A stretch of DNA of 64,000 bases from a virus. Location: the IMG/VR virus record IMGVR_UViG_3300044568_002742, positions 7,068-71,067 of that record; one strand, written 5' to 3'. The position numbers and the translations under genes were made by a program. Under the pieces are notes generated by a model. That model was not told the DNA's origin and did not search any database. It was given only the letters and a program-made list of their open reading frames with translations. Of the stretch, positions 11,380 to 16,398 are shown piece by piece; position 1 is the stretch's first letter, and every line of letters starts with the position of its first letter.

Positions 11380-11632
11380 CTGGGAGCAGATCATGAACAT
11401 AGAAGCAAAACGACTAGCAGTAATTGAGGATGCCTTTGATACTTGTTTGAATGATAGCCATTATTTGATGTTCATCTTAAAAGATCACTATGGTAATTTA
11501 TCAGATGAAGATGTTGAAAAATATTATGAAGATGCGTTTGGTGATAAGCCAGATTGCTTGTAGGAAATAAAACTTGACAATGTGGTTATTACTCGATATA
11601 ATAACCACAACATAAATTAACTGGAGCAGAGA

Positions 11633-12421
11633 ATGAATTTACTAGAAAGTGATGAACAAATTATGGAACGTCTTAGAGAACGATTTGAAATTCTCGAGGA
11701 TATGACCAAAGCATGTAAGGCAGGCAAGGTACGGGCATTATTAGTTAGTGGTGCGCCTGGGGTAGGTAAGAGTTTCGGTGTAGAGAAAGTTCTAAGTGGA
11801 CATGATGTATTCGCCACTATAGCACAAGACAAATCACTTAAGAAATATGAAGTAGTTAAAGGTGCCATTACCGCACTGGGATTGTATGCCAAGTTATATG
11901 AATATAAAGGTGATAAGAACATATTGGTATTTGATGATTGTGATAACTTGTTCTATGATGAATTATCATTGAACTTATTGAAAGCGGCATTGGATACAAG
12001 CGAGAAGCGTACATTAAATTGGAATGCAGAAAGTTATAAATTGAGAGATGAAGGCATTCCTAGTTCATTTGAATTCAAAGGCGGAGTGGTATTCATCACC
12101 AATGTAGATTTTGAACATATCCGTAGTAAGAAATTGCGCGACCATTTAGCCGCATTATCTTCACGATGTCATTACTTGGATTTGACAATTCATAGTGAAC
12201 GTGATAAGATTTTACGAATTAAACAGATCGTCGCTGATGGGATGTTAAATAAACATCAAATAACAGAAGAAGATAAAATTGATGTAGTGAACTTCATTAC
12301 AGAAAATAAACAACACCTGAGAGAGTTGTCATTACGTACAGTTATAAAATGTGCTGACTTGTGTGCTAGTTTCCCAGATAAATGGAAACGTGTCGCAGAA
12401 ATGACATTAATGAAAAAGTAA
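11633..12421 (+). CDS. P-loop AAA-type ATPase
   Basis: Walker A GAPGVGKS, Walker B ILVFDDCD, sensor FITN, arginine finger ALSSR. Confidence 0.85.
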   Translation: MNLLESDEQIMERLRERFEILEDMTKACKAGKVRALLVSGAPGVGKSFGVEKVLSGHDVFATIAQDKSLKKYEVVKGAITALGLYAKLYEYKGDKNILVFDDCDNLFYDELSLNLLKAALDTSEKRTLNWNAESYKLRDEGIPSSFEFKGGVVFITNVDFEHIRSKKLRDHLAALSSRCHYLDLTIHSERDKILRIKQIVADGMLNKHQITEEDKIDVVNFITENKQHLRELSLRTVIKCADLCASFPDKWKRVAEMTLMKK

Positions 12422-12433
12422 AACCCCCCCCCA

Positions 12434-12609
12434 GAGGCGCAAGCCTCAATAATAGATAAGTGAGTAGGATTGCTCCCTGAAAACTTATCCAATAAAGTAT
12501 TGAATAGGAAGGATTGCTCCCCTGATAATTCATTACTCCTGAGGACATTGTCCTCATTAACAAGCCCTAATATCGACGGTTGCTCCCCTAGATATCAGGG
12601 CTTTTTTTT
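12434..12609 (+). ncRNA. Structured 3'-UTR/small RNA with three TTGCTCC (anti-GGAGCAA) loops, ending in an intrinsic terminator
   Basis: Five consecutive hairpins; TTGCTCC at 12470, 12514, 12580; AAGCCCT/AGGGCTT stem followed by T8. Confidence 0.65.
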
Positions 12610-12679
12610 GTTTAGGCTATTGACAAAGTAATCCAATCAAGTATAATAGACACATCATCAACACCTTGGAGCAAATACC

Positions 12680-13354
12680 ATGACAATAGTTAAAGCAAAG
12701 TTAGTCCTCGACATTACCTATGATACCACAGAATTACAGGAAGATGGTGCGGATTTAGTTAAAGGACATTTAGAAGCATTGATGGATACTATATCTGGCG
12801 ATGGCGATTTATCAGGTTATAATGATATGACAGTTGAGGAATGGTCGGTAAAGGTTGCCACTCATGAAATCAAAACCCGTATCACCTATGATGAATTTGA
12901 AGAAAAGTATCAACCGATTAAGAATCATTTAGATGATAACGCATCCTATGATGGGGTTATGTATGAAACCTTTGGTGATGAAGTCCAATATATTTTATCA
13001 CTAGCTAATGACGAACATCATAAAGAAAGAGTATGGACAGTCATTGGTGATTGTAATGCCACAGTGGTAGTATCGGGTTATCATTTGGTCAATAGACTTG
13101 GTTATATTATCACCAGTAAGCCATTAGAGCAAGACTACATGGAGGTATATGACCCAGACTTAATCAAAGCAGTAGGCGATGAAGTATATTGGGAAGATTG
13201 CGACAATGATGAATCTTCTGGTTATTACACCATAGCGAAAATTAAAACACCAAGTGGTAAATTGACTGGTACTAGCGATGACGATGATACCATCATTCTA
13301 TTAACTAATGAAGATGGTGCTGAAACCGAAGTATGCTATTACGAAATATCTTAA
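12680..13354 (+). CDS. Hypothetical acidic protein
   Basis: GGAGCA RBS; YETFG.E...VWT...GYHLVNRLGY motif. Confidence 0.75.
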   Translation: MTIVKAKLVLDITYDTTELQEDGADLVKGHLEALMDTISGDGDLSGYNDMTVEEWSVKVATHEIKTRITYDEFEEKYQPIKNHLDDNASYDGVMYETFGDEVQYILSLANDEHHKERVWTVIGDCNATVVVSGYHLVNRLGYIITSKPLEQDYMEVYDPDLIKAVGDEVYWEDCDNDESSGYYTIAKIKTPSGKLTGTSDDDDTIILLTNEDGAETEVCYYEIS

Positions 13355-13440
13355 CAATGCTAGCTGTATCATAGGCGTATAATGCTTGACATGCTGGGTA
13401 GTATCATGTATACTACCCAGAACAAATGAAGGAAAAGACA

Positions 13441-15601: not shown

Positions 15602-15641
15602 AAGGTATTGACAAGGGCAAGGATGCCCTGTATAATTACAT

Positions 15642-15723
15642 CATCAAATCACAGGGAAGCAATGGCAGGAAGCCATGTCGGCAGTCGATGCGTATCCAGT
15701 AGTTTCAAAGGTAGGTCGTCTTT
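15642..15723 (+). ncRNA. Candidate small RNA, copy B
   Basis: Promoter 15608-15636; ATGGC-AGGAA-GCCAT hairpin; core 15695-15713; no GGAGCA-led ORF. Confidence 0.6.
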
Positions 15724-15803
15724 AAAAAATAATAAAAAATAAAGTTGACAAGTAGTAATTACCTGTTATAATAATCACAACATCAACACCAACGGAGCAA
15801 ATC

Positions 15804-16337: not shown

Positions 16338-16398
16338 CCTATTGACAAGGGCAACGGATTGCCCTATAATATCAGCTTACCAACTAGGAGCAACCAAA

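Follow-up and report, generated by a model that had tools for sequence, protein, structure and literature searches.

Loops of an RNA behind an early phage ATPase gene very probably pair with early ribosome-binding-site tags to regulate early translation

Behind an early ATPase gene of an uncultured giant phage, three hairpins present the same apical word, UUGCUCC, which is the complement of GGAGCAA, a sequence found in the ribosome-binding sites (RBSs) of the early genes. This raises the question of what the complement of an early RBS is doing, in several copies, at the 3' end of a single early message. The answer proposed here is that pairing of the RNA loops with the early RBS tags very probably controls early protein synthesis, and there is no experiment behind this answer. 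Stated in full, the 3' UTR of the early ATPase gene (approximately 12422–12609) is read as a multi-hairpin RNA with UUGCUCC loops that block early RBSs of the form GGAGCAA. This reading is given a probability of roughly 0.7, and in it, the accumulation of the RNA, its action in trans and repression itself are inferred.

The window, that is, the whole stretch of DNA that was analysed, is 64 kb long and corresponds to bases 7068–71067 of a 71-kb IMG/VR record, the completeness of which is approximately 20% (CheckV). It encodes a 1085-aa tail sheath as well as a DnaB-type and other helicases. As the records of relatives with the same ATPase are 345–364 kb in length, the window phage is placed in an uncultured clade of roughly 350-kb myophages. 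The stretch is present in sequencing runs of lake, freshwater and estuary metagenomes; 24 such runs were listed, none of which is on record as RNA, and this list has no bearing on expression. Small genes on the plus strand fill the first 23 kb, and from 24 kb on, genes with replication and structural functions are located on the minus strand. Perfect TTGACA-N16/17-TATAAT promoters precede many of the early genes, with six that match at 12 of 12 positions falling within 10–13 kb. No tRNA or tmRNA gene was found in the window. In many relatives, tRNA genes lie 1.5–3.8 kb upstream of the ATPase gene (loci L003, L005, L010, L017, L028, L049, L057 and L078), and in L057, a second tRNA gene is located ~2.9 kb downstream of it. 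The ATPase locus and the parts of the RNA element, in window coordinates, are as follows:

11574–11602, plus strand: sigma-70-type promoter, perfect TTGACA-17-TATAAT (12/12 matches), which drives the ATPase gene and, by position, also the RNA behind it
11623–11629, plus strand: the RBS tag of the ATPase gene itself, GGAGCAG, which can form 6 Watson-Crick pairs and one G-U pair with the loops
11633–12421, plus strand: ATPase ORF, 262 aa, ending in TAA; the conserved carrier gene, of which the RNA is the 3' UTR
12424–12432, plus strand: C9 run directly 3' of the ATPase stop, differing in length between strains
12434–12447, plus strand: GNRA hairpin, GAGGC-GCAA-GCCTC; the strain variant 12438 C>T retains a G-U pair
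12455–12489, plus strand: anti-RBS hairpin 1, outer stem GATAAGT/ACTTATC, apex GATTGCTCCC at 12468–12477
12496–12537, plus strand: anti-RBS hairpin 2, stem AGTATTGAAT/ATTCATTACT, apex GATTGCTCCC at 12512–12521
12540–12556, plus strand: plain 7-bp hairpin with a 3-nt loop, TGAGGAC-ATT-GTCCTCA (inverted repeat I5), without the anti-RBS motif
12562–12603, with T8 to 12609, plus strand: anti-RBS hairpin 3, stem AAGCCCT.ATATC/GATAT.AGGGCTT, apex GGTTGCTCCC at 12578–12587
12620–12647, plus strand: next perfect early promoter, the 3' boundary of the RNA unit
12668–12674, plus strand: example target, the following early gene (ORF 12680–13354), whose tag reads GGAGCAA; one of 44 tagged starts

The ATPase is a match to phrog_1250 (E 4e-85), and its Pfam AAA_16 match is weak and under the cut-off. 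A preliminary description of this DNA had placed three large hairpins with a shared apex motif behind the stop codon, and this anatomy is borne out: the 10-mer GRTTGCTCCC occurs three times in the window, at 12468, 12512 and 12578, and every copy is in a large hairpin. The GNRA hairpin of that description is also present at its place behind the stop, so that its list of hairpins stands except for the omission of the plain hairpin at 12540–12556. Strain variation is consistent with paired stems in hairpin 3, where one divergent strain carries two compensatory changes (12567 C>T with 12598 G>A, and 12570 A>T with 12595 T>A). The same contig has one further change in a bulge and one in a linker, and no loop is altered. 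The C9 run is 3 nt shorter, by deletion, in the contigs of runs X7 and X10.

On average, 0.14 copies of the 10-mer are expected in shuffled sequence, and 0 of 100 shuffles reach three. The notion that the element is no more than a chance series of ordinary tandem terminator hairpins, which is suggested by the T8 following the last of them, retains almost no weight. Besides the shuffle result, more than 100 deduplicated relatives have retained the element, with stems that co-vary, and the chance reading is already contradicted by this co-variation and by the tag counts of the relatives, both of which are given below.

Whether the motif is accessible was addressed by structure prediction. The 191-nt stretch is predicted to fold with -57 kcal/mol (z = -4.9), and none of 200 shuffles was as good. 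Within the apices, short inner stems of 2–4 bp are predicted in which the flanking GG pairs with 3' C's, leaving an open loop of 6–8 nt, e.g., AUUGCUC. In the predicted ensemble, the unpaired probability of UUGCUC is ~0.6–1.0 in all three loops, and the cost of opening the full 7 nt is calculated as 3.6, 0.4 and 1.3 kcal/mol for loops 1, 2 and 3, respectively. The motif had first been described as simply lying at the apex; this holds insofar as UUGCUC is predicted to be mostly unpaired, and needs refinement insofar as inner stems that pair part of the motif had gone unnoticed. In the model, such partial pairing, at 3.6 kcal/mol for loop 1, counts against the main reading.

The element lies behind a promoter-driven ATPase gene, ends at the sole strong terminator before the next promoter, and overlaps the stop codon in relatives; together, this indicates that the RNA is made as an early 3' UTR. 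Here, hairpin 3 with its T8 (12602–12609) forms the intrinsic terminator. In the relatives, the first anti-RBS motif, which lies on the stop codon or immediately after it, takes the position of the C9 run, and since hairpin 1 overlaps the ATPase stop codon in several of them, the element is part of the ATPase mRNA. A search for a dedicated promoter of the RNA gave, as the best candidate, a 10/12 match inside the ATPase gene (12182–12210).

A 3' UTR of this kind could act in cis only, by pairing, in the manner of icaR, with the RBS of its own ATPase message and otherwise by serving as terminator and stabiliser, with the other genes sharing the tag merely by way of a duplicated promoter-leader module. 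This is in keeping with the ability of the ATPase RBS, GGAGCAG, to pair with the loops, with the constant location of the element behind the same gene, with the motif on the stop codon in relatives and with the repetition of the module. As to the latter, the depth of the run X7 contig over 12634–12680, which includes the -10 box, the leader and the RBS, rises from ~31 to as much as 812, and this jump indicates that related genomes contain many repeats of the promoter-leader module. An effect restricted to cis is nevertheless held to be unlikely, as the tag is kept in 44 genes with otherwise differing leaders and, as explained below, has switched together with the loops in dozens of genes of each genome. 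In addition, the 2–4 loops per RNA exceed the needs of one cis target, and cis and trans action are not mutually exclusive.

The main reading, in which the loops block early RBSs at large, depends on there being a common sequence for them to recognise. Tagged starts were defined as GGAGCA followed by N3–8 and ATG, and were required to open an ORF of 20 codons or more. There are 44 of these on the plus strand between 1404 and 22879, carrying GGAGCAA (32 starts), GGAGCAG (8) or GGAGCAT (4), in agreement with the earlier claim that UUGCUCC is complementary to the GGAGCAA RBS of about 40 early genes. In the main reading, GGAGCAA is a phage-private extension of the Shine-Dalgarno (SD) core, GGAG. 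When each target is paired with its best loop, 11 sites form 6 contiguous pairs, 28 form 7, four form 8 and one forms 9. The shortness of this pairing, which is limited to 6–7 contiguous pairs in 39/44 targets, is a point against the main reading. The longest duplexes had also been foreseen: 9 contiguous pairs are formed with loop 3 at 16387 (GGAGCAACC), where ~16388 had been given, and 8 at both 6331 and 10641 (GGAGCAAT).

The tag is restricted to the early block. For counting, crude longest-ATG ORFs were used and not curated gene calls, and with these, GGAGCA is present at -22 to -3 in 37 of 67 early ORFs versus 0 of 42 late minus-strand ORFs, so that the claimed absence of GGAGCA from late-gene RBSs was confirmed. 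TTGCTCC has 43 matches when both strands are searched versus 6.3 expected, and 33 of these are plus-strand GGAGCAA located from 2.2 to 22.9 kb. The early block spans 30.7 kb in the full record, and its plus strand has 49 copies of GGAGCA and five of TGCTCC, three of the latter being in the RNA. In divergent strains, the tag at 12668–12674 is unchanged while flanking bases vary. Further support came from duplex energies, as the median for the best duplex of a loop with a start region is -11.9 kcal/mol in early and -7.25 kcal/mol in late genes (Mann-Whitney p = 2.7e-7). The control with shuffled loops is no more than moderately clean: their median is -9.0, and the observed value is attained by 5 of the 200 shuffles.

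Two other features of start regions in the window were noted. The late genes (24000–64000, minus strand) are untagged and have weak SD sequences (AGGA, GGAGA), and in several of them, TATAATA lies directly before the ATG, similar to T4-type late promoters with very short leaders. Separately, the region 15640–15730 is promoter-driven and is without a tagged ORF; its 5' part, GGGAAGCAATGG, equals the early tag with one extra A, and this stretch could act on the anti-RBS loops as a decoy or be one of their targets.

If loops and tags function as pairs, a change in one should be accompanied by a change in the other, and co-variation of the loop with the early RBS consensus in related phages had been put forward as a check; loops kept without matching RBSs would argue for refutation. 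Relatives were collected from IMG/VR in two scans, one with the window ATPase (250 relatives, of which 80 were kept) and one with the ATPase of locus L078 (191 relatives, 80 kept). After deduplication by downstream sequence, with at least 200 nt behind the gene being required, 119 loci remained. In 62 of these (class A), two or three hairpins with A(U)UCGCUCC loops (AUUCGCUCC) follow the ATPase gene; in 41 (class B), GCCCUC loops lie behind the same ATPase; and in the remaining 16, another ORF comes directly after the ATPase gene and there is no RNA. The tags counted in these groups are as follows:

Class A (CGCUCC loops), 62 loci, 786 plus-strand RBS windows: GGAGCG 234, GGAGCA 49, GAGGGC 3
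Class B (GCCCUC loops), 41 loci, 644 plus-strand RBS windows: GGAGCG 2, GGAGCA 19, GAGGGC 189
No RNA, 16 loci, 183 plus-strand RBS windows: GGAGCG 0, GGAGCA 0, GAGGGC 0

The tag matching the loop is the commonest of the three in 55/62 class A loci and in 37/41 class B loci. Three matched loop/tag pairs are therefore observed, namely UUGCUCC/GGAGCAA in the window, UUCGCUCC/GGAGCGAA in 62 loci and GCCCUC/GAGGGC in 41 loci, with RNA-less relatives being untagged, and the check is passed. Between the window pair and class A, one loop base has changed together with the complementary base of the tag. The loop word is also rare outside the locus: TCGCTCCC is present 3–5 times per 345–364-kb genome, and 2–3 of these copies are in the RNA locus. 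In one relative (G004), GAGGGCA clusters at 6.4–20.6 kb, around the RNA, and the early leaders have AGAGGGCAA before the ATG.

The structure co-varies as well. A gap-free alignment of 66 class A hairpins shows the 9-nt loop, A(U)UCGCUCC, to be invariant, and the three-pair helix that closes it is 92.4% paired with 26 double-change cells, a value reached by 0 of 500 shuffles. Controls in which the helix was slid out of position are 12–56% paired. Protein operators, too, typically combine invariant loops with variable stems, and it could be argued that the fixed loops bind or decoy a protein, such as a translational repressor, a chaperone or a nuclease, with the complementarity to RBSs being incidental. 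This is very unlikely, as each of the three loop words is matched by a complementary RBS word in the same genomes, which one protein would not explain. Of more particular resemblances, CsrA-type GGA loops were considered on account of the AGGA in loops 1 and 2, and were set aside since loop 3 and the relatives are without GGA. Mimicry of a tRNA T-loop or anticodon and a likeness to boxA were dropped, with no test result behind either.

The refuting outcome was met only in part. Locus L076 has UCGCUCC loops, yet its tagged genes are mostly GGAGCAA/C, giving 5 pairs and a mismatch; L128 has a single UGCCCCUCA loop, yet its RBSs are GGAGAUC; and L116 and L124 have mixed tags. Furthermore, GGAGCA is the commonest tag in two class A and two class B loci despite their class A or B loops. 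The number of independent events is also small. In an ATPase phylogeny (FastTree, 120 rows), the classes come close to monophyly and the four of them need only three changes, which is the minimum, so that there have been only about 2–3 independent co-switches. In each co-switch, 2–4 loops and 10–44 RBSs were changed in concert.

Several relatives have features of their own. The RNA-less ones (L131, L135, L139, L150, L154, L159 and 10 more) have hardly any SD-like RBS, with AGGAG in 11 of 352 windows on both strands. In L128 (1500–7200), early leaders have CTCC words upstream of GGAGA(T/C)C sites, which the lone downstream hairpin loop mismatches, and from the sequence it is possible that these words are an anti-SD inside the leader itself. 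In L002–L005 and many class A loci, a conserved non-coding block with the words ACAACAGCGCATGGGTACCGAAGTA and AAGTACTTCTTTATAA lies ~150–330 nt behind the ATPase stop.

So far, carriers of the RNA have been found only among uncultured phages. A twin-loop pattern search of IMG/VR gave 18 matches, all of which are coding repeats without tagged RBSs and none of which is a relative, so that, outside this record, the UUGCUCC variant has been seen only in near strains from lake and estuary runs. Among cultured phages, the best ATPase matches are in PA5oct-type Pseudomonas phages (47–48% identity), and in PA5oct, a gap of just 44 nt separates the ATPase gene from the start of the next gene, too little to accommodate the RNA. 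A DNA search of INPHARED with 11600–13400 gave no match, and no cultured phage carrying the RNA was found.

How, then, might the pairing act? In the main reading, the RNA would be made alongside the early messages from its consensus promoter and, as it is heavily structured, is proposed to outlive them and accumulate. Its loops would pair with 6–9 nt of early RBSs and block initiation, including that of its own ATPase message (GGAGCAG). The untagged middle and late messages, with only weak SD sequences, are proposed to escape and would inherit the ribosomes. Accumulation of the RNA (as a separate processed species of ~175 nt or as a UTR), its action in trans and repression are each inferred, and no transcript, processing or effect data exist. 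Delayed negative feedback on the tagged early regulon is the most economical reading, the direction of the effect being inferred too. There is, however, a problem of stoichiometry: one three-loop RNA faces 44 promoter-driven messages and must therefore greatly exceed them in stability or in abundance.

The same complementarity and co-variation would hold if the RNA were instead a helper, that is, if it paired with early RBSs only to shield GGAG from a RegB-type endonuclease or to store messages. T4-type phages do cut GGAG in early messages, which lends this idea some support. The region that pairs, -13 to -5, falls within the 30S footprint and a duplex there should exclude ribosomes, and a helping role is accordingly assigned only a small likelihood. 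In T4, RegA and RegB shut off early messages via the RBS, and to our knowledge, early-translation shut-off in that phage is known only from these proteins. The blocking of early RBSs proposed here would, by analogy, be the RNA-only counterpart of the T4 shut-off; RegA and RegB are proteins, and the phage system is RNA.

The element does not correspond to a described RNA. In Rfam, no family matches the locus: the whole window (gathering threshold) and 12300–12720 (E up to 10) gave only tRNAs elsewhere and chance-level matches, as did 10 relatives with E up to 1. No description of such a phage RNA was found in the literature, in which transcript tables in supplements were not covered. In architecture, the closest system is the cuckoo/CcsR sRNAs of Alphaproteobacteria (RSs0680, alpha-r14), which consist of 2–4 adjacent hairpins with the loop motif CCUCCUCCC (PMC4615179, PMC8034643). 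The criterion of adjacent hairpins with variable stems and one shared anti-SD-like loop motif is met here, and both RNAs come from the 3' UTR of an upstream co-transcribed gene and have a terminator-like last hairpin. In contrast to CCUCCUCCC, the loops here are G(A/G)UUGCUCCC, and those of the relatives are AUUCGCUCC or GCCCUC. The upstream gene of cuckoo/CcsR is DUF1127 (ccaF), whereas that of the phage RNA is an ATPase (phrog_1250, weak AAA_16). The cuckoo/CcsR RNAs are described as chromosomal, stress-induced and Hfq-bound, whereas the targets of the phage RNA are the phage's own early genes with a private RBS extension. As the loop word, carrier gene, host and family model all differ, the phage RNA is not a member of cuckoo/CcsR.

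Individual aspects of the proposed mechanism have bacterial precedents. In icaR of Staphylococcus aureus, a C-rich 3' UTR motif, UCCCCUG, blocks initiation by base-pairing to the SD region (PMC3868564). There, a single gene is controlled in cis or through dimers, with RNase III; the phage RNA has several loops and many genes. In Vibrio cholerae, OppZ and CarZ are 3'-end-derived and pair with start regions of their own transcription unit, giving delayed negative feedback; they are RNase E-processed, Hfq-dependent and have one or few targets (PMC7398697). By its sequence, the phage RNA is similar in that it forms the 3' part of a protein-coding message, the terminator of which it shares. Complementarity to its own message is likewise found at the level of sequence, where the ATPase GGAGCAG forms 6 Watson-Crick pairs plus a G-U. 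In the 514-nt RNAIII, a host RNA of S. aureus, the loops pair with SD sequences, and several targets are reached in this way.

Among phages, the closest parallel, by analogy, may be the c4 antisense RNA of P1 and P7. The loops of c4 pair with the RBS region of the phage's own message, and P1 and P7 differ by matched loop/target changes. The likeness, which is an analogy of mechanism only, is in loops complementary to an own-phage RBS region together with matched changes between relatives. The c4 RNA serves one operon (icd-ant) in lysogenic immunity, whereas the phage RNA would serve a regulon of ~44 early genes in a lytic giant phage, and the c4 family has no sequence or model match at the locus. 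A role of c4 in ant control is described (PMC8201110).

What is new in the window is the tag/loop pair UUGCUCC/GGAGCAA itself, with three loops and 44 tagged early starts. For the clade as a whole, the odds are only slightly in favour of the wider statement that uncultured giant aquatic phages have a co-evolving SD-extension address system, in which a multi-loop RNA from an early 3' UTR switches a regulon off without protein, using orthogonal pairs (GGAGCAA, GGAGCGAA and GAGGGCA) according to lineage. If true, this would be an RNA-only global translation switch in a lytic phage, and it would show that a virus can mark an entire class of genes with a private ribosome-site tag evolving jointly with its reader. 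The three natural orthogonal pairs found so far would be ready compensatory controls and potential orthogonal translational switches, and the early-to-late transition of uncultured giant phages would become testable from sequence alone.
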